Origin: Clostridiales bacterium
Lineage (GTDB): Bacteria > Bacillota > Clostridia > Christensenellales > Aristaeellaceae
DNA length: 59,733 bases
Direction: 5' to 3'
NCBI GenBank assembly: GCA_004552515.1
Contig: SFOF01000002.1
Span: 1 to 59,733, forward strand
Shown: positions 3,937 to 27,842 of the stretch, piece after piece
How the letters are laid out: every line of letters starts with the position of its first letter
How positions within the stretch are numbered: the stretch's first letter is position 1
Notes under the pieces: generated by a model
Databases searched by the model: none
What the model was told of the DNA's origin: nothing
What the model saw: only the letters and a program-made list of their open reading frames with translations
Translations under genes and position numbers: made by a program

Positions 3937-3942
3937 CCCGTC

Positions 3943-5007: not shown

Positions 5008-5094
5008 GTTATCCTCCCGTCCGGCGCGGAAAACGCCGGAATTTCCTGTATGAAGGCCGTCGTCAGGCGGTCAAATGTGTTGGGACGTATTATT

Positions 5095-5546: not shown

Positions 5547-5551
5547 GGCGT

Positions 5552-7581: not shown

Positions 7582-7658
7582 ATGTTCAAACACACCTTTC
7601 AAAGCTGTCGGTTTTATTCTTTACTGTCGCGGGGCATTATGGCCGGAAACGGAGGGGT

Positions 7659-10403: not shown

Positions 10404-10427
10404 GACAGACCTCCATATTTGTGCTTC

Positions 10428-10475
10428 AAAAAACCGGATACGCGCGGAAAGGCGATCGCACGCCCCGCGCGCCGG
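10428..10475 (-). terminator. Terminator-like hairpin plus U6 inside the secA leader
   Basis: The minus-strand RNA reads ccggcgcgcgg-(17 nt)-ccgcgcgtatccgg-UUUUUU. It ends 25 nt before the secA ATG and lies downstream of the predicted promoter at 10498-10526. Confidence 0.45.
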
Positions 10476-10497
10476 AGCAGACCTTATGATTCATTTA

Positions 10498-10526
10498 ATT
10501 TTACCATATTATGCGCGGAGACGCAA
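10498..10526 (-). promoter_or_regulatory. Sigma-A type promoter, TTGCGT-N17-TAAAAT (minus strand)
   Basis: The reverse complement of 10521-10526 is ttgcgt and that of 10498-10503 is taaaat, separated by a 17-nt spacer. Confidence 0.45.
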
Positions 10527-10573
10527 GATAAAACGTGTTATATTGGATGCCATTGCGCGCGCTCCTGTGATTA

Positions 10574-11386
10574 TTATACGTCGCCCAGGCGGCGGCGATA
10601 CCGGCCGGGCGTTATGCCCATATGCTTTTTGAACGCGCGGCTGAAGTAGTACAGGCTCGAAAAGCCGCACATTTCCGCCGTCTCGGACACGGAGTAATCG
10701 CCCTCGGCCCGCAGCAGATCGCACGCGCGCTCAAGGCGCAGGCGCATGAGATATTCCGAGGGCGCGCAGCCGTACGCCTCGCGAAAGACGCGGCGGAACT
10801 GCACGGGGCTTAAATACGCCTCCGCCGCCAGCGCCTCCACGCGCAGCGAGGGATCGTCCAGCCGCGCGCGCATGAGCCGCATCGCCGCGGCCAGCCGGTC
10901 GCCCCGCGCGCCGGAGAGCGCCGCCGCCGACTGATCGCGCACCATCATGGCAATCAGGCGCAAAAGCAGCGCCCGGCACACCATGCGGTAGCCCGGCTCC
11001 CTGTCCAGCCAGCAGGCCGCCATGCGCGAGAACAGCTCGAGCGCCGCGGCGGGATCGCGCGCGGGGCAGACGTCGGGCAGGCCCAGCGCCGAAAGATCGC
11101 CGGGATGGGCCGTTTCAAAGTCGGCATAGACGAAGGTATACGTTTCCTCGCCCAACTGCCGCCCCTGATAGCGGCTGCTTTTGTGCAGAAAGAACAGATC
11201 GCCCGGCTTGACATCAAAGCGCCGCCCGTCGGTAAAGCGGTATTCCGCCCGTCCGGATTTGACGTAGATCAGCCCCTGCGAGTGCCGGGGCGGCGTTTCC
11301 AGCTTCAGCCAGCGGGGCGACGCGCCGTGCATGGCCAGCAGCATATCGGTGATCACCAGATCGACGTTGGGATTCATGCGCTTCAC
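10574..11386 (-). CDS. AraC family transcriptional regulator (cupin sensor plus HTH)
   Basis: The 270-aa product has a C-terminal AraC HTH (VEALAAEAYLSPVQFRRVFREAYGCAPSEYLMRLRLERA...CGFSSLYYFSRAFKKHMGITP). Confidence 0.85.
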   Translation of the reverse strand: MKRMNPNVDLVITDMLLAMHGASPRWLKLETPPRHSQGLIYVKSGRAEYRFTDGRRFDVKPGDLFFLHKSSRYQGRQLGEETYTFVYADFETAHPGDLSALGLPDVCPARDPAAALELFSRMAACWLDREPGYRMVCRALLLRLIAMMVRDQSAAALSGARGDRLAAAMRLMRARLDDPSLRVEALAAEAYLSPVQFRRVFREAYGCAPSEYLMRLRLERACDLLRAEGDYSVSETAEMCGFSSLYYFSRAFKKHMGITPGRYRRRLGDV

Positions 11387-11477
11387 CTCTCAGCCAGTAT
11401 AGCACGGGGCGTGCGCGGATTCAATATCTGAGCGCGGTGCATGATCGATTTGTACAAATTTATGGTTGAAAAGCGCA

Positions 11478-11506
11478 TTGCGCGGCGGCGGGGCGCGGGC
11501 TATAAT
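11478..11506 (+). promoter_or_regulatory. Sigma-A type promoter, TTGCGC-N17-TATAAT, upstream of the glycyl-radical enzyme gene
   Basis: ttgcgc lies at 11478-11483 and tataat at 11501-11506. The RBS gggagga precedes ATG 11539. Confidence 0.5.
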
Positions 11507-11538
11507 GGACACAGCTTGAAGCGCCGGGAGGATATTTT

Positions 11539-13749
11539 ATGGACAGGATGTTTGAAGGAGATCGCGCGCTGCTGGATCGTCAGTATGATTGCGTTTGCTA
11601 TGATCCCGAGACGGGGCTTTCGCGGGACGAGCTGCGCGCTGAGGCCGGCGCGCTTGAGGAGCGCCTTTCGGGTGAAGCGCCCATCCGCGTCAAGGCGGCG
11701 CTGTTCAAACTGACGCTGGAAAACGCACGCATCCATGTGGACGAATTCGACTGGATCGCCGATCACATCGACTATGGCGATACCCTCTCCGATCTGCGCG
11801 GCCGGCAGTGGACGGACAGCGGCCTGAAGGCGATTGGCGCGCCGATCGATCCGCTGGCCGAATCGGGCCTTCTGACCGCCGGACTGGATATATCGCACAC
11901 GTCGCCGGACTGGGCGCGGCTGCTGGCGCTGGGCCTTTATGGCCTGCAAAGCGCCGCCGAAACACGCAGGGAACAGCTTGCCGCCGAAAACGCGCTGACC
12001 ACGCGCCGCCGCGATTTTCTGGACAGCGTGATTATGGTCTACGGCGCGATGCGCACGCTCTGCCGCCGGTTGAGCGCGCAGGCCGGAAAGGAGGCCGCGC
12101 GCCATCCCGGGGACGCGGAGCGCCTGCGAGCCGTCTCCGCGGCGCTTGAGCGCATCGCCGATCATCCGCCCCAGACGCTGCACGAGGCCATGCAGCTGGC
12201 CTATATCTATCACGAATGTCAGGAATTCGAGGGCGAGCCGGTGCGCTCGATGGGCGGCTTCGACCGGCTCTACAGCCGCTTTTATGAGGGTGATCTCGCG
12301 GCGGGGCGGCTGACGCGCGATCAGGCGAAGGAGCTGATCAAATACTTCTTCAACAAGTTCTATGCCCGCACGCAGGACAGGGCCAACGGCAAGAATTTCT
12401 ACTTCGGCGGCGAGCTGCCGGACGGGGAGAGCGCCGTGAACGATTTGTCCTATCTTGCGCTCGAGGCGTATCGGGAGATGCGCACGGTCAATCCCAAGCT
12501 GTCTGTGCGCGTATCGGACAATACGCCGCAGGATTTCGTCGCGCTGGCGGCCGACTGCATCCGCGATGGCTGCTCGGGCATTGTGTTCTGCAACGACAGA
12601 TCAATCATCGAGACGATGATGAAATTCGGCAAGACGCGGGAGGACGCGCGGCGCTATGTGCCCATCGGCTGCTACGAACCCGCTGCCGAGGGGCTTGAGA
12701 TGAACCGCTCCGTTTCCGCGACGGTCAATCTGCCCAAGCTGGTCGAGCTGGCGCTGAACGACGGCTTTGATCCGGTATACGGGCGGCAGAGCGGCCCGCG
12801 CACGGGGCTGGATTTCGGCAGCTACGCCGAGTTTGAAGAGGCGTTTTTCCGGCAGGCGGATTATGTCCTCGATCTGGCGATGGATCAGATCCGAAAATCG
12901 GAGGGCTGCTGGCCGCGCTTCAATCCCTCGCCGGTGCTGTCGGGCACAATGGCGCCCTGCCTGGACACGGCGCGCGACGTGAGCCGCGGCGGCGCGAAAT
13001 ACAACAACGCCGGCATCGTCTGCGGCAGCCTGGGCACGGCGGTCGATGCGCTGATCGCCGTCAAAAGACTGGTGTTTGAGGAAAAGCGGCTGACGCTCGC
13101 CGCGCTGCGCGATATTCTCAGGAGCGACTGGGAGGATAACCCGCGCCTGCGCCTGATCGCGCTCAAAAAGCTGCCCAAATGGGGCAACGGCGATCCCGAG
13201 GCCGATGAAATCGCCCGCCGGCTGAACGCGCGCCTTTCCGCCTGCGTCAACGGCCAGCCCAACACGCTGGGCGGCGTTTTCCAGCTGGCGCAGTTCTCCA
13301 TCGACTACACCGTGCGCTTCGGCAGGAGCTGCGGCGCGACCCCCGACGGACGCAGAAGGGGCGAGATGACCAGCAAGAACCTCGCCGCCGTGACGGCCAT
13401 GGACCGGCGCGGCGTGACGGCGATGATCGAATCGGCGGGGCGGCTCGATCAGACGCAGTTCCCGGACGGCGCGGTGCTGGACTGCATCCTCCACCCCTCG
13501 GCGGTGCGCGGGGCGGAGGGACTCAGGGCGTTTGTGCGGCTGATAGAGACATATTTCGAGCTGGGCGGGCTGTGCATACAGTTTAATGTGTTCGACGCGG
13601 CCACGCTGCGGGCGGCGCAGGAGAATCCCGAAAAATACGCGTCGCTTCAGGTGCGCGTGTGCGGCTGGAATGTGTTCTTCAATCATCTGAGCCGCGCCGA
13701 GCAGGACGAATTCATCCGCCAGGCCGAACACGAGGAGGGAATCCGATGA
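11539..13749 (+). CDS. Glycyl radical enzyme, PFL2/glycerol-dehydratase-like (eliminase-type Cys-x-Glu loop), substrate unknown
   Basis: The 736-aa product has the C-terminal glycyl-radical motif LQVRVCGWNVFFNHLS and the catalytic loop VPIGCYEPAAEG. Confidence 0.85.
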   Translation: MDRMFEGDRALLDRQYDCVCYDPETGLSRDELRAEAGALEERLSGEAPIRVKAALFKLTLENARIHVDEFDWIADHIDYGDTLSDLRGRQWTDSGLKAIGAPIDPLAESGLLTAGLDISHTSPDWARLLALGLYGLQSAAETRREQLAAENALTTRRRDFLDSVIMVYGAMRTLCRRLSAQAGKEAARHPGDAERLRAVSAALERIADHPPQTLHEAMQLAYIYHECQEFEGEPVRSMGGFDRLYSRFYEGDLAAGRLTRDQAKELIKYFFNKFYARTQDRANGKNFYFGGELPDGESAVNDLSYLALEAYREMRTVNPKLSVRVSDNTPQDFVALAADCIRDGCSGIVFCNDRSIIETMMKFGKTREDARRYVPIGCYEPAAEGLEMNRSVSATVNLPKLVELALNDGFDPVYGRQSGPRTGLDFGSYAEFEEAFFRQADYVLDLAMDQIRKSEGCWPRFNPSPVLSGTMAPCLDTARDVSRGGAKYNNAGIVCGSLGTAVDALIAVKRLVFEEKRLTLAALRDILRSDWEDNPRLRLIALKKLPKWGNGDPEADEIARRLNARLSACVNGQPNTLGGVFQLAQFSIDYTVRFGRSCGATPDGRRRGEMTSKNLAAVTAMDRRGVTAMIESAGRLDQTQFPDGAVLDCILHPSAVRGAEGLRAFVRLIETYFELGGLCIQFNVFDAATLRAAQENPEKYASLQVRVCGWNVFFNHLSRAEQDEFIRQAEHEEGIR

Positions 13750-14309
13750 CGCTGGAGCAGGAGCTTTTGGCCTATCAGCCCGTTAACGAGCAGGAGGCGC
13801 GCGATCTGCCGAAAATGGTCGCCTTTCTGCGCGAGGGCAAAACGCCCTTCGACCGCGCCAACGAGACGGCGCACTTCACCGCCTCGGCCTGGGTGATTGG
13901 CCGCGAGACGGGGCGGGTGCTGCTCATCTATCACAACATCTATCGGTCGTGGGCGTGGACGGGCGGCCATGCCGACGGCGAAACGGATCTGCGCGCCGTC
14001 GCCCGGCGGGAGGCCATGGAGGAGAGCGGTGTGAGCGGCCTGCGCGATCTGGGGGACGGCCCGCTGTCGATCGAAATTCTGACCGTCAACGGCCATGAAA
14101 AGCGCGGGCGGTACGTCCCGTCGCATCTGCACTACAACGTGACCTATCTCTTCGAGGCGGACGACCGGCAGGCCGTGCATATGAAGCCGGACGAGAACAG
14201 CGGCGCGGGCTGGTTTGCGCCCGAGGACGCGCTCGCCGCCGTCTCGGAGACGTGGATGCGGGAACGCATCTATCCCAAGCTGATCGCCAAAACGGCGCGG
14301 CTGAAATAG
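13746..14309 (+). CDS. NUDIX hydrolase
   Basis: The Nudix box is GGHADGETDLRAVARREAMEESGV. Its ATG overlaps the GRE stop as ATGA (13746-13749). I chose the internal start of ORF 13659..14309 (MTLEQELL). Confidence 0.85.
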   Translation: MTLEQELLAYQPVNEQEARDLPKMVAFLREGKTPFDRANETAHFTASAWVIGRETGRVLLIYHNIYRSWAWTGGHADGETDLRAVARREAMEESGVSGLRDLGDGPLSIEILTVNGHEKRGRYVPSHLHYNVTYLFEADDRQAVHMKPDENSGAGWFAPEDALAAVSETWMRERIYPKLIAKTARLK

Positions 14310-14445
14310 CGCATGAGCCAAAATCACACTCTCCGCTTTGCAAATCCTCTGCTCGGGGATGCGGCTTCATGACCTTTGCTCAAGCGCTTTTTCATAACTC
14401 TCCGGCTGAACGGACGGGTTTATAACGCCTGTTCGGCCGCCATAC

Positions 14446-14484
14446 AAAAAACTCCGGCCGGACGCGAAATCCGGTCGGAGTTTT
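14446..14484. terminator. Bidirectional terminator between the NUDIX and PHP genes
   Basis: An A5 run is followed by actccggccgga (14451-14462) paired with tccggtcggagt (14470-14481) and then TTTT. Confidence 0.65.
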
Positions 14485-14495
14485 CTAAGGCGCGG

Positions 14496-15299
14496 TTATG
14501 CGCGCTCGATATGGAATTTGTCGCTCTCCTGAAGGCCGAGCCGGTCGATGGCGCGCTCGAATATCGCGCGGCAGCCGGCAAAGGCCGCCGGATGATGTGC
14601 GTCGCTGCCGCAGTAGAACTTGCAGCCGCAGCTCTTCGCGATTCGGAACGGACGCAGCACGATATCCTCCTCCGCGTCGGAGAACTTCATGTCGTCGGAA
14701 TTCAGCTCGATGCCCACGCCCAGAGCCGCCGCCTTTGAAAACAGCCGCTCCAGCTCGGCCTCGGGCAGCGCGTTCATCACGGCGAGATACAGATCGCGCT
14801 TCGGGGCGATCAGGCCGCACGCCAGATGCGCGATGCCGATCTTGTGGAAGGGCAGATTCTTATCGAGCAGGCCGTCCAGACGGCTGAGCCAGCATTTTGC
14901 GCGCCCCTCGACCGTCTGCGCGTCCTCGTCGGAGATGGTGAAGCCCACCATGTGCAGGTGCGTCGTGGGGATGATCACAAAGTCGAAGCGATCGAAATGC
15001 TCCCTCGCAACGCCCACCGTCATGAATTTGTCCATGTCCGTCTCGCAGCCGAAGAGAAACTCGGTTTTTTCATCCTGCGGCAGCGGCTTGGCGCGGCTGA
15101 TCCAGGCGTAATTCTGCTTCTGATACCAGTCGGACGCGCCGCTCACCGTCTCGTCCCAGAAATGATCGGTCAGGCAGATCGTGTGAAGGCCGTTTTCCCG
15201 CGCGTAGCTCAGGATGCGCTCGGGGGTCTGCGCGGGGTCGCTCGAGCAGAGGGAAATCCGCGAATGAATATGATAATCGTGATCGAAAGCGAATTTCAT
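14496..15299 (-). CDS. PHP (polymerase/histidinol phosphatase) domain phosphoesterase
   Basis: The N-terminus is MKFAFDHDYHIHSRISLCS...ICLTDHFWD. I chose the ATG at 15299, preceded by GAGGTG. Confidence 0.65.
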   Translation of the reverse strand: MKFAFDHDYHIHSRISLCSSDPAQTPERILSYARENGLHTICLTDHFWDETVSGASDWYQKQNYAWISRAKPLPQDEKTEFLFGCETDMDKFMTVGVAREHFDRFDFVIIPTTHLHMVGFTISDEDAQTVEGRAKCWLSRLDGLLDKNLPFHKIGIAHLACGLIAPKRDLYLAVMNALPEAELERLFSKAAALGVGIELNSDDMKFSDAEEDIVLRPFRIAKSCGCKFYCGSDAHHPAAFAGCRAIFERAIDRLGLQESDKFHIERA

Positions 15300-15321
15300 G
15301 ACATTCACCTCACAAGCGGGT

Positions 15322-16290
15322 TTACAGCGAGATGGGGAACCATTCCGCAGGCATATCGGGATACAGCGCGCGGCTGAGCGGCGAGAACATCAGATCCTGC
15401 GCCTGCATTTTCGTCAGCATCGGCGCGGCGGCGGGATCGCCCGGCTCGACGGTCGCTTTGCCATCCTTGCAGACCATATGCCACGCCTCGCCCTCGACGT
15501 TCAGCGTGGCTTCGCCGTCGGGCAGCAGACCGGCGGCGGCTCTCAGGCCGAGTCCGGCCAGCAGCACGCGGTCGAAATGATAGACGCGATACTGCATGGT
15601 GGTTTGCAGCGTGGTGTTTTCACAGAACGCGCCGACCGCCCTCAGACACGCCGTCTCATAGGGCGCGACGGACAGACGCAGGCTGTCCGCGCCGGTCGCG
15701 TTCAAATACGCGGCGCAGGCGTCGGCGGCGAGCGAATAATCGTCCAGCGTCAGGCGACCGCCGTTCAGCGTGCCATGCTGAACGCCCTCCCCGTCGAGCA
15801 GCCTTCCATCCTGCCAGATCAGGCGCGGCGCGGCTTCGCCCAGCGTGTGGCGGATGTTGGTGGGCGTGACGTCGAGCATATAGCGGACGTTGCCCTGCGT
15901 GTAGCCGAAATACTGATAGCGCTGGCGCAGGCCGTTCAGCTCGGCGTAGTCGTAGCCCGCGGCGGCCATGTCCTCGTCGGCCATGCGCATGAGATGCTTC
16001 ATGTGCCCCTCGCCGCGCTCGTAGGGATGCACCGACACCTGTCCGATGTGGGCGCGCGTGAGGTGAACGCCGGCGCAGTCGCTCTCGCGCTTTGAGACGG
16101 ACAGCGTGGCCTTGATGCGCCCGTCGCGCACGGCGACGTAATGCTCCTTCCAGAAGGGATAATCGCCGCCGTACATGGCGGGATTGAACTTCTTGAAGTC
16201 GTGCGGCCGATGCGCCTGGCTGAACACATAGTTGATGAAATCCAGGATGTCGGCGGCCTCCTCGGCGCGCGCCTTTCGGTATTCGAGCAT
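15322..16290 (-). CDS. GNAT family N-acetyltransferase, Eis-like (GNAT plus C-terminal SCP2-like region)
   Basis: The 322-aa product has an acetyl-CoA pocket-like segment (IGQVSVHPYERGEGHMKHLMRMA). The RBS ggggagga lies upstream. Confidence 0.55.
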   Translation of the reverse strand: MLEYRKARAEEAADILDFINYVFSQAHRPHDFKKFNPAMYGGDYPFWKEHYVAVRDGRIKATLSVSKRESDCAGVHLTRAHIGQVSVHPYERGEGHMKHLMRMADEDMAAAGYDYAELNGLRQRYQYFGYTQGNVRYMLDVTPTNIRHTLGEAAPRLIWQDGRLLDGEGVQHGTLNGGRLTLDDYSLAADACAAYLNATGADSLRLSVAPYETACLRAVGAFCENTTLQTTMQYRVYHFDRVLLAGLGLRAAAGLLPDGEATLNVEGEAWHMVCKDGKATVEPGDPAAAPMLTKMQAQDLMFSPLSRALYPDMPAEWFPISL

Positions 16291-16310
16291 GATTTGTTCC
16301 TCCCCATGAT

Positions 16311-17084
16311 TTATAATTGAGCGGCGTCCCCGTCGTTCAATATTTGTGCGTTTATCCCGTCCAGGTCATTCAGGCGCGCCTGCACGCCCTCGGGGTCGGC
16401 CAGTATCGTGCGGCCGTGATGGATGAAGCCCAGCCTTTTCGGCGCGCGGCCCGATTCGGCCAGACGCCGCGCGGCGGCGAGGGGATCGTGATGCCCCGTC
16501 TCGTGGAGCAGAAGATCGCAATTCTCCAGCAGCGGCGCATAGTCGTCATAGCCGCCGGTATCGCCGGTGTAGACCAGCTTTTTTCCGTCCGCCTCCACTG
16601 AAAAGCCGAACGCGCGCCAGCCGTACTGCGCGTCATGGCCCATGTGGGACGTGTGCAGCGCCGTTACGCGCAGGCCGTCCTCGTCGTAGATCACGCCGTC
16701 AGAAATATCGCGAATATCCAGATTAAATTTGCATTGAAAGCCGCCCTCGCTCAGCGAAAGCAGCGCGGAAATCGCCGGCCAGGCGCGGCGATCGGGCAGA
16801 TACAACCGCACGGTTTTTCCGGCCAGCCGCCCCTGACGGCTGTCCAGCTTGCGCAGCGTCCAGAGCAGATTGGGCAGCCCGCCGATGTGATCCATATGCG
16901 TGTGGCTTATAAAAATCGCGCGCGTAGAGAGCAGATCGAGCCCGGCAAGATGCGCTGTGCGCGAGCAGCCCTCGCCCGCGTCGAACCAGTACAGTGCGTC
17001 CGCCCGCTCGAGCGTGAAGGATGTGTGCCGGCGCTCCGGCATGGGCTCCGTGCCCGAGCAGGAGCCGAGGATGCGGATGTTCAT
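16311..17084 (-). CDS. MBL-fold metallo-hydrolase
   Basis: The HxHxDH motif is SHTHMDHIGG. The start is ATG 17084 (MNIRILGSCSG) with GGAGGGA upstream. Confidence 0.75.
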   Translation of the reverse strand: MNIRILGSCSGTEPMPERRHTSFTLERADALYWFDAGEGCSRTAHLAGLDLLSTRAIFISHTHMDHIGGLPNLLWTLRKLDSRQGRLAGKTVRLYLPDRRAWPAISALLSLSEGGFQCKFNLDIRDISDGVIYDEDGLRVTALHTSHMGHDAQYGWRAFGFSVEADGKKLVYTGDTGGYDDYAPLLENCDLLLHETGHHDPLAAARRLAESGRAPKRLGFIHHGRTILADPEGVQARLNDLDGINAQILNDGDAAQL

Positions 17085-17230
17085 GGCGCTCCCTCCAAAT
17101 GAATTGACGTTTATGACAGCATACACCATCCCGCCGCCGATTGCAAGACGCGGCGCGGCATTTTTTTACCATTGCGGCTTTTTATGGTATTTTCATGCCG
17201 GAAATCGGCGGGCGCGGGGCGTTTTTACTA

Positions 17231-17260
17231 TTGTCCCCGCTCGGCGCGTTATGCTATAAT
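17231..17260 (+). promoter_or_regulatory. Sigma-A type promoter, TTGTCC-N18-(TGc)TATAAT
   Basis: ttgtcc lies at 17231-17236 and an extended -10 (tgctataat) ends at 17260, upstream of the nitroreductase gene. Confidence 0.45.
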
Positions 17261-17307
17261 GAAGGCCGAAAATAACGATCCGTCAGGGCAAAGGAGAATG
17301 AAACGGC

Positions 17308-18027
17308 ATGGATCTGCTCACCGCCATTTCCGTACGGCGCTCCCGCCGCCACTATATCGACGAGCCGATGACCTCGATCCTCTGCGATAAGCTGCGCGCC
17401 GAGGCGGGCCGGCTGAACGCCGAAAGCGGGCTGGATATGCGCCTCGTTACCGACCGGCACGAGCTGTTCAGGGGCGGCTTCGGGCTGTTTCAGGGCGCGC
17501 GCAACGCCTTTCTGCTCGCGGGGCCGTCGGATAATCCTGATCTGGCCGAGCAGTGCGGCTACTGGGGCGAGAGGCTCGTCCTCTTCGCGACGACGATGAA
17601 TCTGGGAACCTGCTGGGTCGCCGCGACGTTCAACCGCGCGCTGGCCGAGACGCTGATTCCCGCGGGCGAGCGGCTGGCGTGCGCGATCGCCGTGGGGCTG
17701 GTCAAAGATGAGATGAGCGTGCGCGAGAGCGTTCAGTACCGCCTGATCCACCGATCCTGCAAGCCAATTGGCGCGCTCTGCCGCTATGACCGTCCCAGCG
17801 AGCGCTTCACAGCGGGCATGGAGGCCGTGCGGCTCGCGCCCTCGGCGATGAACCGCCAGCCGGTGTTCTTTGAATTGAAAAGCGGCGCTGTGACGGCGCG
17901 CGTGTCGCCCTCGGCGTGGGGGCCGGTCGATCTGGGCATCGCCAAGGCGCATTTCGAGCTGGCCGCCGGGCCGGGGCGCTGGGCGTGGGGCAGCGGCGCG
18001 GCGTTTGACAGCGGCGAGCCGTTCTGA
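17308..18027 (+). CDS. Nitroreductase family protein
   Basis: The N-terminus is MDLLTAISVRRSRRHY, followed by APSAMNRQPV. The RBS aaggaga lies upstream. Confidence 0.75.
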   Translation: MDLLTAISVRRSRRHYIDEPMTSILCDKLRAEAGRLNAESGLDMRLVTDRHELFRGGFGLFQGARNAFLLAGPSDNPDLAEQCGYWGERLVLFATTMNLGTCWVAATFNRALAETLIPAGERLACAIAVGLVKDEMSVRESVQYRLIHRSCKPIGALCRYDRPSERFTAGMEAVRLAPSAMNRQPVFFELKSGAVTARVSPSAWGPVDLGIAKAHFELAAGPGRWAWGSGAAFDSGEPF

Positions 18028-18302
18028 CGCTTGCGGGCCGGCTTTTCCGGAGCGTAAGCGGATCGACTTTATCCATAAGAGCGCGGCGCTTGAATTTCAC
18101 GAACCCGGCCGCCGCGATCTTCGGGCGGAGCCTTGGATCCGCACAGGCCTTTTCCCGGTTCCCGAGACGGACGCGGAACGTCCCGACGGGGAAAATCGAG
18201 AGCATTGAAACGCAGACATTCTGAAAATCGCCGCTCTGCGCGCTTCTGAGGCGCGGCGCGGCCGGGACATTTCGGCAAAAGGTATTTCAAGGAGATATGA
18301 AT

Positions 18303-19199
18303 ATGGCGCTGATATTCAACATCCAGCGATTTTCGGTCAACGACGGCCCGGGTATCCGCACGAACGTGTTCTTCAAGGGCTGTCCGCTCAACTGCCTGTG
18401 GTGTCACAATCCCGAATCGAAATCGACAAAGCCCGATCTGGGATTCATCGCCTCAAAGTGCATCGGCTGCGGCCATTGCCTGACGCAGTGTCCCGGACAC
18501 TGCCACACGATGGAAAACGGCGAACACGTCATCGACCGCTCGAAGTGCCTGGCCTGCCGCGCCTGCGAGCGCTTCTGCGCCGGCGCGCTGGAGATCATGG
18601 GGCGCGAAATGACCGTGGACGAGGTGCTGGGCGAGGTCATGAAGGACGAAATCTTCTATAAAACCTCGAACGGCGGCATGACCGTCTCCGGCGGCGAGCC
18701 GATGATCCAGTTTCCGTTTATCACAGAGCTGCTGCGCGCGGCGAAGGAAAAGGGACTGACCTGCTGTATGGAAACCTGCGGCTTTGCGGCCTGGGCGCGC
18801 TTTGAGGAGATCATGCCCTATGTCGATCTGTTCCTCTACGACATAAAGGAAACCGATCCCGCGCGGCACAGGGAATACACCGGCGCGGACAACGCGCTCA
18901 TCCTCGAAAATCTGAGGAAGCTGGACGGCGCGGGCGCGAAAACCGTGCTGCGCTGCCCGATCATTCCGGGGCTGAACGACCGCGCCGATCACTTCGCCGC
19001 CGTCGCGCATCTGGCCGATTCGCTCAAAAACGTGCAGGGGATCGACGTGGAGCCGTATCACCCGCTGGGCAAGACGAAATGCGAAAACCTTGGCCGCGAT
19101 TATCCGCTCGCCGATCTGTCCTTCCCAGACAAGGCGCAGATTCAGGCGTGGATCGGCGAGATCGCCGCGCAGACCCGCGTGCCCGTGCGGCAGGGCTGA
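18303..19199 (+). CDS. Glycyl-radical enzyme activating protein (radical SAM with two auxiliary 4Fe-4S motifs)
   Basis: It carries FSVNDGPGIRTNVFFKGCPLNCLWCHNPE plus CIGCGHCLTQCP and CLACRACERFC. I chose the second ATG (18303) for its RBS spacing. Confidence 0.9.
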   Translation: MALIFNIQRFSVNDGPGIRTNVFFKGCPLNCLWCHNPESKSTKPDLGFIASKCIGCGHCLTQCPGHCHTMENGEHVIDRSKCLACRACERFCAGALEIMGREMTVDEVLGEVMKDEIFYKTSNGGMTVSGGEPMIQFPFITELLRAAKEKGLTCCMETCGFAAWARFEEIMPYVDLFLYDIKETDPARHREYTGADNALILENLRKLDGAGAKTVLRCPIIPGLNDRADHFAAVAHLADSLKNVQGIDVEPYHPLGKTKCENLGRDYPLADLSFPDKAQIQAWIGEIAAQTRVPVRQG

Positions 19200-19347
19200 A
19201 TGTCAGGGGACGTTTTCAAGCGCGAATAGTCCGACGGCAGGCCTGACGAAAGCGGATCGGAGTGCCGAAGAAATGTCCCGCCGCGCCGCGGTGTTTCGTA
19301 AAAATGGGCTGAGCGCGCATTTTCGAGAATACAGGAGGAGGCTCACC

Positions 19348-20535
19348 ATGGATTATCTGTTCATCAACGCGCGCGTTTTGACGCCGTTTGCGTTCAGGGA
19401 CGCGGCGGTGCTGGTGCGCGGCGGCCGCATTGAGGAGATCGCCGGGCACATCGAGCCGGCTGAGAACACGCGCGTGATCGACGCGGGCGGGCGGCTGCTC
19501 GTGCCGGGCTATGTCGATCTGCACGTCCACGGCGGCGGCGGGCGCAGCGTCATGGAGGGCACGAGCGAGGCGATCTGCGCCATGGCGCGCGCCCATGCGC
19601 TGCGCGGCACCACGTCGATCCTGCCCACGACCCTGAGCATGCCCCTGCCCGCCATGATCCGCGCGGGGCGAGCCGTGACCGAGGCCATGGCCGAAGAGCA
19701 TCCCTACACCATACTGGGCGTACATCAGGAGGGGCCGTGTCTTTCCCCGGCGCAGGGCGGCGCGCAGTCCACGGACGCGCTGCTCGTTCCCGCAAGGGCC
19801 GATCTGACCGCGCTCATCGAGGATTGCCCCGCGCTCAGGATGATGGGCGTCGCGCCCGAGCTGGACGGCGCGATGGCGCTGGGACGGCGGCTGAACGAGC
19901 GCGGGATCGTCGCCAGCGCGGCGCACACCGACGCGGACTACGACACCATGGCGCGCGCCGTGATGAACGGCTTTTCCGACGTGACGCATCTCTATTCCGG
20001 CTGCTCGAGCGTCGTGCGGCGCAACGCCTTCCGCGTGGCGGGCGTGGTCGAGGCCGGGCTGGAGATGAGCGCGCTGACCGTGCAGGTGATCGCCGACGGC
20101 TGTCATCTGCCGCTGCCGCTGCTGCGGCTGATCTATCGCTGCAAGGGCGCGGACAGGATGTACGCCGTGACCGACGGCCTTGAGTTTTCCGCCGCTGAAC
20201 AGAAGGAGGGCGCGCTCTATACGCAGTTAAACGGCCAGCCCTGCCTGTACGAGGACGGAGTGATGAAGCTGCCCGACCGCCATGCCTTCGCCGGCAGCGT
20301 CGCCACGATGAGCCGGCTGGTGCGCACGCTGGTTCGCGCGGGGATTCCGCTTGCCGACGCTGTGCGCATGGCCACCGACACGCCGGCGCAGCGCATCGGC
20401 GCAAGGGGCAAGGGGCGCATCGCCGCGGGCAGCGACGCGGATATACTGCTGCTGGACGACAGCCTGCACGTCACGCTGGTCATGGCGGGCGGCGAAATCC
20501 TTACCGAGCAGGCCGAGGAAAAGGACGTGCTGTGA
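19348..20535 (+). CDS. nagA: N-acetylglucosamine-6-phosphate deacetylase
   Basis: Motifs are GYVDLHVHGGGG and HLYSGCS, with a C-terminal GRIAAGSDADILLLD. The start is ATG 19348 with AGGAGGAG upstream. The longer ORF from 19090 overlaps the activase gene. Confidence 0.85.
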   Translation: MDYLFINARVLTPFAFRDAAVLVRGGRIEEIAGHIEPAENTRVIDAGGRLLVPGYVDLHVHGGGGRSVMEGTSEAICAMARAHALRGTTSILPTTLSMPLPAMIRAGRAVTEAMAEEHPYTILGVHQEGPCLSPAQGGAQSTDALLVPARADLTALIEDCPALRMMGVAPELDGAMALGRRLNERGIVASAAHTDADYDTMARAVMNGFSDVTHLYSGCSSVVRRNAFRVAGVVEAGLEMSALTVQVIADGCHLPLPLLRLIYRCKGADRMYAVTDGLEFSAAEQKEGALYTQLNGQPCLYEDGVMKLPDRHAFAGSVATMSRLVRTLVRAGIPLADAVRMATDTPAQRIGARGKGRIAAGSDADILLLDDSLHVTLVMAGGEILTEQAEEKDVL

Positions 20536-20771
20536 GGGAACGGAGCGATGGCGCGAGAGTCCGCAGAGCATGGGTGATTCAGGCGGAGGATTTGGTGGAA
20601 GCGGCGGCTTTTGAGCGGGCCGAGCCTGACAAAATGGCCGATGAGCGATCTTGCGAAGCGCCGGTTCGGCGGGGCGGAATCGGGATTGCGTACTGGAGGC
20701 GCGAACAGGAGCTTTGATTGTTCCTTTTCCGCGCAGAAGGCGCACTTTTCCGTCGAAATCGCTCATATGGC

Positions 20772-20800
20772 TTGACGTTTGCCCTGCGTCTTTTTATACT
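20772..20800 (+). promoter_or_regulatory. Sigma-A type promoter, TTGACG-N17-TATACT, for the cupin-to-GH29 operon
   Basis: ttgacg lies at 20772-20777 and tatact at 20795-20800, 45 nt before ATG 20845. Confidence 0.55.
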
Positions 20801-20844
20801 CTTTCTGTATGCGGCTCAAAGCGCCGCGCCGAAAGGAGAAGATC

Positions 20845-21193
20845 CATGTCCAAGCGCTATGAAATCGCGTCTCTGCCGGAGATTCCGCCGGTGGAATGTC
20901 CCTGCGGCTTTACGCACCGCGCCTTTACCGATCTGCCCGAAAAAACGGCCTCCATCCATCTTGTGGACATCAAAAAGGACTCCCGCGTTCACTATCACGA
21001 GCGTCTGAGCGAAATCTATTTCATCCTCGAGGGCGAGGGCTATATGGAGCTGGACGGCGAGCGCATCCCCGTCAGGCCCATGGACGCGATCTTTATCCGG
21101 CCGCTGTGCCGCCACCGCGCCGTGGGGCGCATGAAGGTGGTCAACGTGCCCATTCCCTCGTTTGATCCGACCGATGAACATTTCGACGACTGA
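20845..21193 (+). CDS. Cupin domain protein
   Basis: The 116-aa product has a cupin core (HYHERLSEIYFILEGEGYMELDGERIPVRPMDAIFIRP). The RBS aaaggaga lies upstream. Confidence 0.6.
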
Positions 21194-21213
21194 TAATCAG
21201 GGGGGTAACGACG

Positions 21214-22647
21214 ATGATACTGACGCTTGTCGGCGGCGGCGCGCACCGCCTGCTGGGCACTGTGAGAAGCGCCCTGAAGGAAAACGTCTTTGCCGGGGGC
21301 GGCGAGATCCGCCTGTACGATCTGGCGAAGCGCCGCGCCCAGGCCATGGCCGCCATGATCAAAAAAAGCCCCGAATATGCCCGCACGCCGGTGACGGTGA
21401 AGTGGGATCTGACGCTCGAGGAGGCGCTGGACGGCGCGGATCTGGTCAGCGTCACGCTGCTGGCCGGCGGCGCGCGTCCGCTGGCGGTCGAGAGCAGCAT
21501 CGCCGCGTCGCACGGCTTTGTCGGCTCGGACAACATCTCCTATCCCGGCGCGTTTTTAGCGCTGCGCGGACTTCCGATCATACTGAACATCGCCCGCGCC
21601 ATGGAAAAATACTGCCCGAACGCCGTGCTGCTCGATTTCGCCAATCCCGTCGCCGTGCTGACCGCCGCCGTGCGCATGACCACGAAGATCCAGTGCTACG
21701 GCATCTGCGCGGGGCACACCAACCACGGCTGGGACTACAACCGCATCCTCACCGGCCGCGACGCGTACGACCCGGACTACGATCTGCTGGTGGCCGGCGT
21801 GAACCACATGAGCTGGGTGGTGAAGGGCACGATCCACGGCACGGACGTGGTCGAGGCGCTTCTCCGCCGCGAAAGGGAATGTCCCGACTGGGCGGACAGG
21901 CTGGCCTATACCGCTGAAAAAACGCCTGAGCAGAAGCGCTACATGACCGCGGGGCTTCACCGCATCATGGATCTCATCCACAATCACGGCGCGCTGCTCT
22001 TCTCCACCGAGGGCGACGGCTTTTCGCATTTCTACTATGAGGAAAAGGCCGCCGCACAGCACGCCTGCCCCAGGGCCGACTGGCCGGAGCTGCTGCCTGC
22101 CGCCGAGCTGGCGCGCCTTGAAAAGAGCCTGGCCGCGCAGGCCGAAGCGCGCCGCGCCGAGGATGCTCAGTTCGATGCATACGCCGCCATGCCCGCCGAT
22201 GAGATTCCCTGGAATGACCCGCTCAACACGCTGTTTTACGTCTTTGACGGCGGCGACGTGACCACGCAGGTACTCAAGGGCCTTGCCGGCGTTCAGGACT
22301 GCACCGTCGCCATCAGCGATCTCAACGAGGGCAGCGTGACCAATCTCGATCCCGCGCTGGTGCTGGAATACTCCCACCGCGTGGATAAGCACGGCGCGCA
22401 CCGCATCGGTGGCCTTCAGGTGCCGATGGGCGTGTACGGCATGACCGCCTCCATCGCCGCGCATCAGACGCTGCTGGCGCGCGCGGGCGCTGAGGAAGAC
22501 CCGCGGCTTTTGTATGAAGCGCTGAGGGCCTATCCCATCGGCGCGGACACGCGGAGCGCGCACGAGATGTGGCGCAAGCTGCTGATTTCCTCGAAGGACT
22601 TTATCGCGCCCGCCTTCCAGTCCATGCCCGATTATTACGAAATCTGA
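21214..22647 (+). CDS. Glycoside hydrolase family 4-like (NAD-dependent) enzyme
   Basis: It has an N-terminal Rossmann segment (MILTLVGGGAHRLLG) and mid-protein YGICAGHTNHG. It looks divergent from textbook GH4. Confidence 0.55.
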   Translation: MILTLVGGGAHRLLGTVRSALKENVFAGGGEIRLYDLAKRRAQAMAAMIKKSPEYARTPVTVKWDLTLEEALDGADLVSVTLLAGGARPLAVESSIAASHGFVGSDNISYPGAFLALRGLPIILNIARAMEKYCPNAVLLDFANPVAVLTAAVRMTTKIQCYGICAGHTNHGWDYNRILTGRDAYDPDYDLLVAGVNHMSWVVKGTIHGTDVVEALLRRERECPDWADRLAYTAEKTPEQKRYMTAGLHRIMDLIHNHGALLFSTEGDGFSHFYYEEKAAAQHACPRADWPELLPAAELARLEKSLAAQAEARRAEDAQFDAYAAMPADEIPWNDPLNTLFYVFDGGDVTTQVLKGLAGVQDCTVAISDLNEGSVTNLDPALVLEYSHRVDKHGAHRIGGLQVPMGVYGMTASIAAHQTLLARAGAEEDPRLLYEALRAYPIGADTRSAHEMWRKLLISSKDFIAPAFQSMPDYYEI

Positions 22648-22665
22648 TCTGCCAGGAGGATTGCC

Positions 22666-25434
22666 ATGAGATATGTTCAGAACGAATCCGAAATTCTGTG
22701 CCTGAACCACGGCTGGCGCTTTATCGAGAAGGACTTCTCCGTCCTGCCGCCGGAGGCGAGCATCAAGCACGACGCGATCTACCGCTACGCCAAGGCGGGC
22801 GCGCAGCTTGGCCCGGCCAGCGCCGACTTTGACGACGGCGACTGGAGCGAAGTCTCCCTGCCGCACGACTGGGTGCCCTTTAAGGACTTTACGCCCGACG
22901 CTTATCCCAACCACGGCTACAAAAGGCGCGGCATCGGCTGGTACCGCGTCAAGTTCCAGCTGCCCGAGAGCGATAAGGAGCGCCAGATTCTTCTCGACTT
23001 TGAGGGCATGAGCTGCGACGCGCAGATCTACTTTAATGGCCAGCTGCTCTACAGAAATTTCAGCGGTTACAAGAGCTTTACCGTCGATCTGACCGACATG
23101 GCCAACTTCGGCGATGTGCCCAACGTGCTGGCCGTGCGCGTGGACGCCTCCGCCTGGGAGGGCTGGTGGTACGAGGGCGCGGGCATCTATCGCAGCGTCT
23201 GGCTGCACAAGAAGGCCGCCGCGCACATCGCGCACAACGGCATCTGGGCCAAGCCGGTCTTTAAGGAAGGCCGCTGGACGGTCGAAGTCGAGACGACCGT
23301 CGAAAACAGCTTTGAATACGACCGTGATTTCACGCTCGAAACCGCGCTCTACGACCCCTCCGGCCGCCTGTGCGGCACGATCGCTCAGGCCGGTTCGGTC
23401 AAGGGCTATGACAGCGCCGTCATGAAGGGCGAAATTCCCGTCGAAAAGCCCGAGCTGTGGTCGATCGATACGCCGAACCTCTACCGCGTCAAGGCGCGCG
23501 TGAGCGGCGATTTCGGCGAGCATTTCCAGTGCGTGGAGACGGGCCTGCGCACGATCCGCTACGACGCGGACGAGGGCTTCTTCCTCAACGGCGAAAACGT
23601 CAAGATGCGCGGCTTCTGCAACCATCAGGATCACGCCGGCGTGGGCGCGGCCGTGCCCTACGCCATCAAGGAATACCGCATCGCGCTGCTCAAAAAGCTG
23701 GGCGCGAACGCCTATCGCTGCGCGCACAACACCGATCCCGAGATTCTCGAGATCTGCGACCGGCAGGGCATGCTGGTGATGGAGGAAAACCGCACGTTCT
23801 CCTCCGCCGAGGAAAATCTTCTGCGCCTGGAGAGCATGATCAAAAACAGCCGCAATCACCCCAGCGTGGTGATGTACTCCATGTTTAACGAGGAGCCGCT
23901 TCAGGGCACGCGCAAGGGCCATCGCATGGCCGGACGGATGCAGGCGCTCGTCCACCGGCTGGACGACAGCCGTCCCTGCACCGGCGCGTTCAACGGCGGC
24001 CAGATGGAGGACGAGGGCGCGGCCACGATCCTCGACATCGTGGGCATCAACTATAACCCCGCCTCCTACGACGCGTTCCACGCCAAATTCCCGAACAAGC
24101 CCGTGTTCGGCTCGGAGACGGCCAGCGCGTTCATGGTGCGCGGCGAGTGGGAAGAGGATCGCGAGAACCGCCACATCATTCCCAACTACGACGAGACCTG
24201 CGCGCCCTGGGGCAACACCATCCACGACACCTGGGAGAGCGTCGATACGCGGCCGTTCAACTTCGGCTCCTTCGTGTGGACGGGCTTCGACTATCGCGGC
24301 GAGCCGACGCCCTTCACCTGGCCGAGCGTGGCCACGTTCTTCGGCACCTACGACAGCTGCGGCTTCGAAAAGGACGGCTGCTTCCTCTACAAGGCGTACT
24401 GGCACAAAGAGCCGGTGCTGCACCTGCTGCCGCACTGGAACCTCGGCCTTGAAAAGGGAACGCCGGTGCGCGTGATGGCCTTCACCAACTGCGACGAGGT
24501 GGAGCTGTTCCTGAACGGCAGGAGCCTGGGCCGCAAGGCGTGCGGCAAATACAGGCCGACCGAATTCACAGTGCCCTATGAAGAGGGCAAACTGAGCGCC
24601 GTGGGCTACAGAGACGGCGCCGAGGTCGTCCGCGACGCGGAAGAGACGGCCGGCGATACGGCGCAGCTGCGCGTCGAGCTGAGCAAGACCGCGCTCAAAA
24701 ACGACGGGCTGGACGCGCTGGCGGTCAATGTGCGCGCCTATGACGAGAAGGGGCGCTTCGTGCCGACGGCGGACGATCTCATTCACTTCGACGTGACCGG
24801 CGGCGCAAAGCTCATCGGCGTGGGCAACGGCGATCCCAACTCGCACGAGGACGACGTCGCGCCCTATCGCCATCTCTACAACGGCTGCGCGCAGGCGATC
24901 CTGCTGAATGACGGCGACGAGGACGTTCACATCACCGTGCATACCGAAAAGGCCGCGCCGGTCGAGCTGACGATTCCCGTCGTGAAGGGCGAGAACGTGC
25001 CCTATGTGAAGGCCGTGCGCGAGAACGCCCTCGAAAACTGGACGATGTTCCACCGCCTGTTCGACGCAATGCCCGATCCCAATCCGGCCGTTGCGGACAA
25101 CGACATGAACTCCTTCGAGCCGGTGGCGATCAACGGCATGGCGCAGCCGCAGTTTAAGGGCCGCTACGATACCTACGGGCTGTACCGCGTATCGGTCAAT
25201 CTGGGCGCGGCGCGCGGCGGACGATCGATCTATTTCGGCAGGATCTGGGGCGAGGCATCCGTCTATCTGGACGGCAAAAAGCTGGCCGAACGGCCGAACG
25301 ACGGGCCGGAATTCCTGAACGCCGCGCTGCCGGACGACGCGGCGGGCGCGCACATACTGACCGTGGTCATCCACAATGTGGACGAGAAATGGTCGAACGC
25401 CGGCATACTGGGCGCGGTGTCGCTCAGGGGCTGA
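22666..25434 (+). CDS. Glycoside hydrolase family 2 (beta-galactosidase/beta-glucuronidase-like)
   Basis: The 922-aa product carries WYRVKF, NAYRCAHN and the acid/base region NHPSVVMYSMFNEE. Confidence 0.85.
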   Translation: MRYVQNESEILCLNHGWRFIEKDFSVLPPEASIKHDAIYRYAKAGAQLGPASADFDDGDWSEVSLPHDWVPFKDFTPDAYPNHGYKRRGIGWYRVKFQLPESDKERQILLDFEGMSCDAQIYFNGQLLYRNFSGYKSFTVDLTDMANFGDVPNVLAVRVDASAWEGWWYEGAGIYRSVWLHKKAAAHIAHNGIWAKPVFKEGRWTVEVETTVENSFEYDRDFTLETALYDPSGRLCGTIAQAGSVKGYDSAVMKGEIPVEKPELWSIDTPNLYRVKARVSGDFGEHFQCVETGLRTIRYDADEGFFLNGENVKMRGFCNHQDHAGVGAAVPYAIKEYRIALLKKLGANAYRCAHNTDPEILEICDRQGMLVMEENRTFSSAEENLLRLESMIKNSRNHPSVVMYSMFNEEPLQGTRKGHRMAGRMQALVHRLDDSRPCTGAFNGGQMEDEGAATILDIVGINYNPASYDAFHAKFPNKPVFGSETASAFMVRGEWEEDRENRHIIPNYDETCAPWGNTIHDTWESVDTRPFNFGSFVWTGFDYRGEPTPFTWPSVATFFGTYDSCGFEKDGCFLYKAYWHKEPVLHLLPHWNLGLEKGTPVRVMAFTNCDEVELFLNGRSLGRKACGKYRPTEFTVPYEEGKLSAVGYRDGAEVVRDAEETAGDTAQLRVELSKTALKNDGLDALAVNVRAYDEKGRFVPTADDLIHFDVTGGAKLIGVGNGDPNSHEDDVAPYRHLYNGCAQAILLNDGDEDVHITVHTEKAAPVELTIPVVKGENVPYVKAVRENALENWTMFHRLFDAMPDPNPAVADNDMNSFEPVAINGMAQPQFKGRYDTYGLYRVSVNLGAARGGRSIYFGRIWGEASVYLDGKKLAERPNDGPEFLNAALPDDAAGAHILTVVIHNVDEKWSNAGILGAVSLRG

Positions 25435-25468
25435 CATAAAGACACAGCGAAGAAGGAGGACTTCCATT

Positions 25469-26338
25469 ATGAAAAATGGACTGGCCATATGGCACTATCC
25501 CCATCGGACGCTGACCGAAAACGTCGTTCACTTTTCCGAGATGCTGGACAGCGTGAGCGTGCTGGGCTTTCACTTTGTGGACGCGTGCCGGCAGGACGGC
25601 GGTGCGGCGCTCTATGAGGCGCTGTGCGAAAAGCATCCCGTGTTTACCGTACACCACAAGCTGCCCTCCACGCACGAGGAAAAGGACGTGGCCGCCTTTA
25701 ACGAGGACATTGCGCTGTGCGCGCGCTGGCAGAAGCGCTACGGCCTGCTCGCCACGCTGTCCTTCGATGTGCCGCAGGCCATTCGCGACGGCATCTATCC
25801 CTATCTCAAGACCGTTCTGGACGCGTTCGCGGGCGAAAAGACGCGTATCGCCGTCGAAGATTTCGGCCTGACTGAGGAGGAGATGCGCCAGCTCGATCCG
25901 CTCAGGGGCAATCCTCAGTTCGGCTTTCTGCTGGACATCGGCCATCTGACAATGCGCCTGCATGACAGCCACTGGAGCCCGAAGAAGCGGCTGTTCAACT
26001 TCTCGCGCTACGAGTGCCCCTCCCGCGAGCTGGGCACGCCGGTCACGCGCGCGGATTATCGCGAGACCATCGTGAACAAGCCCTTCCCCATCGTCGAAAT
26101 CCATATGCACACCAACGACGGCGTGCGCGATATGCACTGGTTTCTGGACAATCCCGAGGGCGTTGTGGACTCTCAGATGATCGCCGACCTGCTCACCGAG
26201 CTTCATTACGACGACGTGCTGACCATCGAGAGCGCGCCCGGCTTCATGTTCCCCTGCGCGGGCAGGGAGGCCGACGAGGGCATCGAGCGCACCATCGCAA
26301 TCTGGAAAAGCTGCCTTGAAAGGGCGCAGCGGCAATAA
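25469..26338 (+). CDS. Sugar phosphate isomerase/epimerase-like (xylose-isomerase-like TIM barrel)
   Basis: It contains LLDIGHLTMRL and IVEIHMHTNDG. The start is ATG 25469 with aaggagga upstream. Confidence 0.55.
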   Translation: MKNGLAIWHYPHRTLTENVVHFSEMLDSVSVLGFHFVDACRQDGGAALYEALCEKHPVFTVHHKLPSTHEEKDVAAFNEDIALCARWQKRYGLLATLSFDVPQAIRDGIYPYLKTVLDAFAGEKTRIAVEDFGLTEEEMRQLDPLRGNPQFGFLLDIGHLTMRLHDSHWSPKKRLFNFSRYECPSRELGTPVTRADYRETIVNKPFPIVEIHMHTNDGVRDMHWFLDNPEGVVDSQMIADLLTELHYDDVLTIESAPGFMFPCAGREADEGIERTIAIWKSCLERAQRQ

Positions 26339-26365
26339 TACGACATTCGCAAGGAGGAAAAAAAC

Positions 26366-27766: not shown

Positions 27767-27842
27767 AACATCTGCTTTTCAGACCCGGCGCGGTTCATCC
27801 CTGCCGGGTCGTTTTTCAGCATTGCAAACGGAGGGTCACGAT

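Follow-up and report, generated by a model that had tools for sequence, protein, structure and literature searches.

The window analysed here is a stretch of 59,733 bp from a Clostridiales bacterium (contig SFOF01000002.1 of assembly GCA_004552515.1), and its plus strand carries, at 11539..13749, the gene for a glycyl-radical enzyme (GRE) of 736 aa. Our analysis led us to favour, with somewhat better than even confidence, the view that this open reading frame (ORF) encodes a functional enzyme from a large, uncharacterised clade of compact GREs of the Cys-x-Glu (CxE) type with a broad phylogenetic spread, that this enzyme would act as a radical C-O eliminase or isomerase on a carbohydrate-derived substrate, and that the NUDIX hydrolase gene overlapping its stop codon is a resident neighbour. 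The ORF belongs to the PFL-like GRE superfamily. Pfam searches detected both the PFL-like domain (PF02901, E 8e-117) and the Gly_radical domain (PF01228, E 1.5e-21), and the latter contains the glycyl-radical motif R706-V707-C708-G709-W710 (13654..13668, plus strand; ...LQVRVCGWNVFF), in which G709 is the radical glycine; the protein ends in ...LQVRVCGWNVFFNHLSRAEQDEFIRQAEHEEGIR. The Cys loop, VPIGCYEPAAEG, includes G377-C378-Y379-E380-P381 (12667..12681, plus strand), with C378 as the thiyl-radical cysteine and E380 as the CxE glutamate. The 736-aa ORF with its RVCGW motif and Cys-x-Glu loop had been pointed out in a preliminary description of this DNA, and all three were reproduced.

Alignment of 92 family sequences revealed no variation in the G377-C378-Y379-E380-P381 loop or at H120, R706, G709 and W710 and hardly any at V707, and showed that an E229-x-E-G232-E-x-V-R236-S motif is invariant or near-invariant. 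The GCYEP loop of the window GRE aligned with GCVEP in glycerol dehydratase (GD), propanediol dehydratase (PD) and HypD. In addition, a profile alignment placed the clade-invariant His120 (codon 11896..11898, plus strand) opposite the general acids GD His164 and PD His166, with ldlgHispgW facing NGVGHVSVDY in GD and NGVGHVTVQY in PD. As its signature, the clade has G-C-Y-E-P in the Cys loop and R-V-x-G-W in the glycine loop, along with a G-H general-acid motif that is conserved. The definition of the CxE class and the functions assigned to its motif and to GD His164 were taken from a 2026 review (PMC13450708), in which the characterised CxE enzymes are GD, PD, HpfG, HypD, HpyG, HpzG, CutC, IslA/IseG and HpsG, together with the isomerases HplG, YbiW and PflD, and according to which entire GRE clades are still unvalidated. 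By its invariant C378-Y379-E380, the window GRE would be placed in this class of 1,2-eliminases and isomerases.

To relate the protein to enzymes of known structure, an AlphaFold2 model was built with the 92 family sequences as input; its predicted local distance difference test (pLDDT) value was 95 and its predicted template-modelling score (pTM) 0.93. In Foldseek, the model matched more than 40 GRE chains, including HypD, PD, GD, CutC, PflD and YbiW, with a probability of 1.00 and template-modelling (TM) scores of 0.85-0.91, and its identity to all solved GREs was 22-28%. The comparison with known GREs that the preliminary description had suggested was thus made on the model for the fold and by sequence alignment for the substrate pocket. 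As modelled, the protein is a complete GRE barrel about equally distant from every characterised enzyme. HypD (6VXC), which shares the CxE motif, was by a small margin the best match both as a single sequence (312 bits) and as a structure (TM 0.91, 28% identity), but Asp278 of HypD lies opposite Pro234 of the window GRE, and neither proline nor pyrroline-5-carboxylate reductase genes form its context. The IseG, HpsG and IslA structures were 23-24% identical. The curated NCBIfam models gave the same picture, as the protein fell below every cutoff: 355.4 bits against 1100 for HypD (NF043068), 343.9 against 678.2 for the GD/PFL2 subfamily (TIGR01774), 317.5 against 1000 for HpfG (NF048009), 291.4 against 1000 for the sulfonate GRE model (NF048011), 272.2 against 1050 for CutC (TIGR04394) and 256 against 1109 for the PflD type (NF007437). 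These scores and identities agree with the earlier supposition that the GRE stands outside the characterised families.

The same data bear on the proposal, raised in the preliminary description for propanediol, that the gene encodes a compact B12-independent propanediol or glycerol dehydratase for the fermentation of fucose or rhamnose. Among solved structures, GD with 554 bits and PD with 538 bits gave the highest scores with the family profile, both the CxE motif and the equivalent of GD His164 are conserved, and the window contains a GH29 fucosidase gene (27822..29168, plus strand, Pfam/NCBIfam) and an FGGY kinase gene (39370..40851, ORF scan). The window GRE also shares with GD (C. butyricum, 1R8W/1R9D) and PD (R. 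inulinivorans, 5I2A/5I2G) the ten-stranded GRE barrel, the RVxG loop, the GCxEP loop with its catalytic Glu and the G-H general acid. However, the protein reached only 344 bits with TIGR01774, for which the cutoff is 678, and the PD and GD structures are only 24-27% identical to it. It is also about 50 residues shorter than these enzymes, mainly at the N-terminus, carries a further 9-residue loop deletion, and has Tyr in place of Val in the CxE motif and Trp after the radical Gly. In the sequence alignment, the glycerol-binding positions of GD are lost, with Ser282 replaced by Pro234, Asp447 by Val392 (Met in the family) and Tyr640 by Phe586, and with the Tyr339 loop deleted, so that only His164 is kept. 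Furthermore, no bacterial microcompartment (BMC) shell or aldehyde dehydrogenase gene was present among the window ORFs scanned, as had been stated before, and no phosphotransacylase gene was found in the window or among the top Pfam families of the 219 ORFs flanking clade members. We therefore consider a dehydratase of the GD/PD kind very improbable, and the propanediol proposal was not borne out.

The distribution of homologs showed that the protein belongs to a large clade. Homology searches (333 proteins at E <= 1e-20) first returned near-identical copies from gut metagenomes and a relative with 71% identity, after which full-length proteins of 703-774 aa followed without a break at identities of 41-50%. 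When species-representative genomes were scanned with family patterns, at least 588 matches were confirmed, the best 80 of which come from metagenome-assembled genomes (MAGs) of Clostridia (Oscillospiraceae, Lachnospiraceae), Victivallales/Lentisphaeria, Armatimonadota, Chloroflexota, Planctomycetota, Verrucomicrobiota and Poribacteria. The median length of the clade GREs is 742 aa, with a further mode at about 680 aa, and because of this median the 736 aa of the window GRE must be regarded as a typical size; the label 'unusually short' is right in relation to the characterised eliminases (~785-850 aa) but wrong within the clade. Eight further members all fell below every NCBIfam cutoff, even that of the broad TIGR01774 model (329-496 bits against 678), and none of the database entries returned for clade proteins carried a functional name. 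Literature searches that covered GREs in Victivallales, Planctomycetota and similar phyla, as well as GREs with polysaccharides or deoxy sugars, revealed nothing on this clade. Two clade GREs were observed within a few kb of each other in four loci (L047, L059, L062, L077), and several MAGs, such as CAZKUN, JAQWBY and CAZPWP, have multiple GRE copies on different contigs; this multiplicity suggests diversification of paralogues like that of glycoside hydrolases.

Selective constraint on the window gene was evaluated from the ratio of nonsynonymous to synonymous substitution rates (dN/dS), which was 0.16-0.22 over protein divergences of 9-29%. Because of these values, together with the intact ORF and the presence of all catalytic motifs, the gene was judged to be functional. 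In addition, the window GRE retains 162 of the 174 family-conserved columns, which is within the range of ordinary members. The opposite view, in which the gene, left without an adjacent activase, would be an orphan in decay or silent, could draw on the position of the activase, from which it is separated by 4.5 kb and a convergent operon, and on the 71% relative, in which no activase lies within 9 kb. However, the dN/dS values and the retained columns led us to reject a pseudogene, and 21 of 66 informative family loci likewise have no adjacent activase. Decay or silence is extremely unlikely. Within the lineage of the window GRE, which comprises six sequences with at least 71% identity, we noted an arginine at position 390 (12706-12708), where all other members have a cysteine, and a leucine at position 577 (13267-13269), where 98% of the family has an arginine. 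Both positions flank active-site strands, and the two changes could reflect either a relocated arginine or a shift in specificity.

Since Gly709, Cys378, Glu380 and His120 are all conserved, a catalytic scheme of the GD/PD/HypD type is expected (PMC13450708). In such a scheme, the activase encoded at 18297..19199 would install a radical on Gly709, from which a thiyl radical would form on Cys378. The thiyl radical would abstract a hydrogen atom from a carbon that bears a hydroxyl or lies next to one, Glu380 would deprotonate that hydroxyl, and His120 would protonate the vicinal leaving group. The outcome would be a radical 1,2-elimination or a ring-opening isomerisation, most probably with cleavage of a C-O bond. 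As substrate, a small molecule derived from carbohydrate is most likely, such as a sugar, a polyol or a deoxy- or anhydro-sugar, and it would be sensed by the divergently encoded AraC-family regulator. We infer a substrate of this class from the AraC control and from the oxidoreductases, TIM barrels and glycoside hydrolases that surround clade GREs.

To examine these surroundings, 78 genome loci with a GRE identity of 50% or less were surveyed by tblastn with the window proteins, and the 219 nearest-flank ORFs were subjected to de novo clustering and a Pfam census. Among the informative loci, an activase gene lies directly downstream of the GRE gene in 38 of 66 and elsewhere in the flank in 7, with none in the flank in the remaining 21, and a divergent AraC-type regulator lies upstream of the GRE in 14 of 59. 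The claim that the GRE is an orphan with a displaced activase therefore holds for the window but not for the family, and the arrangement in the window is a lineage-specific rearrangement. AraC was the commonest flanking Pfam family (17 ORFs), followed by GFO/IDH/MocA oxidoreductases (15) and SDR epimerases/dehydratases (10); other recurrent families were PF12831 FAD oxidoreductases, AP_endonuc_2 TIM barrels, MR/MLE proteins, and various glycoside hydrolases and esterases. Neither the clustering nor the Pfam census had NUDIX, BMC shell or aldehyde dehydrogenase families among its top families. An operon with the order GFO/IDH/MocA-SDR-GRE (~680 aa)-activase, often with a divergent AraC gene, recurs in Victivallales, Armatimonadota and Planctomycetota (L049, L064, L067, L071, L076 and L085, at ~8000-13000 in each locus). 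No other context is as consistent within the clade, and this operon offers the best starting point for finding the substrate.

Among individual loci, that of a Phycisphaerae MAG (L013, identical to L007; ~3300-12100) has the GRE as the last gene of a seven-gene plus-strand operon, in the order aminotransferase, Ceramidase_alk, two AP_endonuc_2, GFO/IDH/MocA, a third AP_endonuc_2 and GRE. This GRE has no adjacent activase, and a Ceramidase_alk gene is also found near the GRE in L014. A deacylase or amino-sugar theme, suggested by Ceramidase_alk in these two loci and by the NagA-like gene of the window, was considered and dropped, as it was absent in other relatives with 47-50% identity.

One form of the explanation favoured here, in which the enzyme, as an isomerase like YbiW and PflD and not as a net dehydratase, would open the ring of an anhydro-sugar or a similar cyclic ether, deserves separate consideration. 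The GFO/IDH/MocA, AP_endonuc_2 and MR/MLE families found beside clade GREs occur in anhydro-sugar and keto-sugar pathways. YbiW and PflD (8ID7, 8ID0, 8YJO), whose substrates are given as 1,5-anhydroglucitol/mannitol-6-phosphate, are the only characterised CxE GREs that work on sugars, with radical C-O cleavage; their genomic context is comparably rich in carbohydrate genes, the Foldseek TM scores of the window model to the two enzymes were 0.85-0.88, and the isomerase class shares the CxE motif (PMC13450708). However, the NF007437 score was 256 bits against a cutoff of 1109, the identity to YbiW and PflD was only 24-25%, and His120 is typical of dehydratases. A sugar kinase or aldolase was never consistently adjacent to clade GREs, and, unlike in the YbiW/PflD systems, the window GRE shows no sign of a phosphorylated substrate and no adjacent set of phosphotransferase system, kinase and aldolase genes. 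An isomerase of this type is thus possible but on the whole unlikely. We consider it slightly better than an even bet that the radical reaction of the clade is off the current list of GRE reactions, for example a dehydration or ring opening of a neutral, deoxy-, anhydro- or amino sugar freed by glycoside hydrolases. If true, this would be a new and widespread step in the anaerobic glycan catabolism of gut Clostridia, Victivallales, Armatimonadota, Planctomycetota and Chloroflexota. GREs carry out chemically hard reactions under anaerobic conditions, and every substrate class added so far (choline, hydroxyproline, isethionate, anhydroglucitol-6-phosphate) has led to a microbial pathway that was new and relevant to a host or an environment. 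The clade, which is large, spans several phyla rich in glycan degraders, occurs in human gut MAGs and has a full catalytic set with no curated model, is a reasonable target for functional discovery.

A different explanation had been put forward in the preliminary description, namely that a single pathway, with a substrate that is nucleotide-linked or phosphorylated, unites the GRE with the coupled NUDIX hydrolase and with the phosphoesterases of the PHP and MBL types. The start of the NUDIX gene (13746..14309, plus strand, 187 aa, PF00293) overlaps the GRE stop codon, and the overlap of its ATG with the TGA as ATGA at 13746-13749 was reproduced. This overlap is kept in the relatives with 91% and 71% GRE identity, the NUDIX gene is under purifying selection, and an ADP-ribosylglycohydrolase-family gene is part of the activase operon, all of which would suit a common pathway. 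However, NUDIX, PHP, GNAT, MBL and nitroreductase genes, as well as NagA, were found at none of the 78 family loci, so that pairing of GRE and NUDIX is restricted to relatives with at least 71% identity. The whole window layout is kept at 91% GRE identity. In the 71% relative (L003), secA, AraC, GRE and NUDIX keep their order and the same overlap, but a GH10 gene follows, and no PHP, GNAT, MBL, nitroreductase or activase gene lies within 9 kb; the MBL/GNAT/PHP trio is thus absent from L003 as well as from 78/78 family loci. Neither the coupling nor the flanking hydrolases are therefore conserved, an outcome that the preliminary description had itself named as speaking for a fortuitous adjacency. 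No paper linking GREs and NUDIX enzymes was found in the literature.

The NUDIX family itself also argues against a common pathway, because it is very large and has orthologues without a GRE. This Clostridia family surpasses the GRE lineage by far in conservation and is more widespread, and its matches number more than 7,400, hundreds of them at 60-74% identity. In the loci examined, orthologues with 60-72% identity lie beside an adenine deaminase gene, beside DUF402 and peptidase genes, or downstream of a GyrI-type regulator gene that comes after PrfB-SecA, with no GRE nearby. One of these loci (L090) has the order PrfB-SecA-regulator-NUDIX, and because its SecA is 81% identical to that of the window and the NUDIX gene lies downstream, the NUDIX gene occupies the same chromosomal slot with or without the GRE. 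The closest solved structure was 3FCM (full-length alignment, E 2e-43), a structural-genomics protein without assigned function, which has the N-terminal extension and the Nudix box in common with the window NUDIX, whereas the tie to a GRE is found only in this narrow lineage. The C-terminal EEGIR tail of the GRE, disordered in the model with pLDDT <50, exceeds the consensus of the family by three residues, and its coding sequence, ...ACGAGGAGGGAATCCGATGAC, matches the ribosome-binding region of the L090 NUDIX gene, ...ACGAGGGGAGCGATGGCATGAC. In the simplest reading, the NUDIX gene was resident and an AraC-GRE module came to lie upstream of it; the reading frame of the GRE would now end in the old NUDIX leader and ribosome-binding site, giving rise to the ATGA overlap. 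Since a 4-bp overlap can come from insertion beside a resident gene, the overlap alone is no proof of a functional link. We judged the NUDIX gene to be a resident and probably co-transcribed neighbour of secA, of a housekeeping kind, and not a pathway partner, and a single pathway joining the GRE to the NUDIX, PHP and MBL hydrolases has little to recommend it and is highly improbable.

Between the NUDIX gene and the activase lie, on the minus strand and convergent to the GRE, genes for a PHP phosphoesterase (14496..15308), a GNAT protein of the Acetyltransf_9 type (15322..16290) and an MBL-fold hydrolase (16311..17129), all assigned by Pfam/NCBIfam, followed on the plus strand by a TM1586-type nitroreductase-fold protein (17308..18027, PF14512). 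This arrangement, like the divergent AraC regulator with its control region of ~150 bp, agreed with what had been reported earlier. In two loci with a GNAT 73% identical to that of the window (L098/L099), a GDPD-like gene, PHP and GNAT diverge directly from an activase-NagA-GH2-AP_endonuc_2-ADP-ribosylglycohydrolase run whose activase is 86% identical to that of the window, and no MBL, nitroreductase, GRE or NUDIX gene is present there, which again speaks against a common pathway. GNATs with ~50% identity lie in unrelated gene contexts, and a metagenome scan with the GNAT returned near-identical copies only. We judged the PHP/GNAT/MBL trio to stand outside the GRE system, and the nitroreductase gene to be a dispensable insert, because it is absent between GNAT and activase in L098/L099 and absent from the family loci. 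From the L098/L099 arrangement, the stable unit is the activase with the glycan operon, and the same activase-NagA-GH2-AP_endonuc_2-ADP-ribosylglycohydrolase run is also kept in L001/L010.

The radical-SAM GRE activase (18297..19199, plus strand), the first gene of the glycan operon, has three Fe-S cluster motifs (CPLNCLWC plus two CxxCxxCxxxC) and scored 335.8 bits with TIGR02494, for which the cutoff is 174.35. It is the sole activase of the window, ~4.5 kb downstream of the GRE as reported earlier, and tblastn found neither a second activase nor a second GRE in the 59.7 kb. Its dN/dS was 0.09. The best NCBIfam equivalog match was the HypD activase (337 bits against a cutoff of 425), and a hidden Markov model of 47 activases adjoining family GREs gave 373 bits. 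Judged from these sequence comparisons, it is the probable cognate activase of the GRE.

Regarding the AraC-family regulator (10574..11386, minus strand; Pfam HTH_18, HTH_AraC, Cupin_2 and AraC_binding), its gene is divergent from the GRE and is kept beside it in the relatives with 91% and 71% identity. By sequence reading, the shared control region covers 11387..11538 (~150 bp). The true start of the regulator is probably the ATG at 11377 (267 aa), because the relatives start there, and the distance between the AraC and GRE starts is ~152-161 bp. A weak promoter-like match on the minus strand (11424-11396) was found in the control region, where the number of matches was not above shuffle expectation. 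The promoter and terminator scan, with counts likewise not above shuffle expectation, found no terminator between NUDIX and PHP, and no Rfam riboswitch or other RNA element was detected anywhere in the window.

Several points weigh against the interpretation of the GRE as an eliminase or isomerase of carbohydrate-derived substrates with an unrelated NUDIX neighbour. First, the flanking genes of the clade are heterogeneous, with none of them shared by a majority of the loci, and GFO/IDH/MocA or SDR genes are found in about one fifth. Second, the pairing with the activase relies on a modest score gap (373 against 337 bits), and the divergences of GRE and activase are uncorrelated (Spearman rho 0.16, p 0.23). 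Third, conservation of the 4-bp overlap at 71% GRE identity together with selection on the NUDIX gene makes co-expression likely, and a lineage-specific functional link is possible; the secA-NUDIX order without a GRE was seen in one genome, whose contig ends 2 kb past the NUDIX gene. Fourth, the pocket residues were mapped by HMMER sequence alignment to GD, PD and HypD only, and C390R and R577L fall at near-invariant positions, so that the substrate of the window lineage may differ from that of the clade. An explanation that combines these last points, in which this lineage has a shifted specificity and makes use of the co-transcribed NUDIX hydrolase, seems improbable to us.

Downstream of the activase, glycan-utilisation genes in the same orientation occupy 19345..29168 (plus strand, Pfam/NCBIfam) and encode a NagA-like amidohydrolase, a cupin, GH4, GH2, an AP_endonuc_2 TIM barrel, an ADP-ribosylglycohydrolase-family protein and the GH29 alpha-L-fucosidase. 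The NagA-like protein (19345-20535, plus strand) scored 220.4 bits with TIGR00221, just below the cutoff of 225.65, and may not be a true GlcNAc-6-phosphate deacetylase. The ADP-ribosylglycohydrolase-family gene (26366-27766, plus strand) follows GH2 and AP_endonuc_2 in this run, and its arrangement with the activase is conserved in L098/L099. A PF12831 FAD-dependent oxidoreductase is encoded 40 kb from the window GRE (54561-56030, plus strand), and members of this family also lie directly beside clade GREs in L008, L018, L019, L020 and L054. An ORF of 773 aa (31569-33890, plus strand), with the genes of an ABC ATPase and an FtsX/MacB-type permease on either side, has a coding-like codon bias and no Pfam match. 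Finally, two long ORFs, one of 968 aa antisense to secA (7743-10649, plus strand) and one of 1310 aa antisense to GH4/GH2 (21556-25488, minus strand), are not genes but artefacts that stem from a GC content of 63% and from the high GC content at third codon positions.

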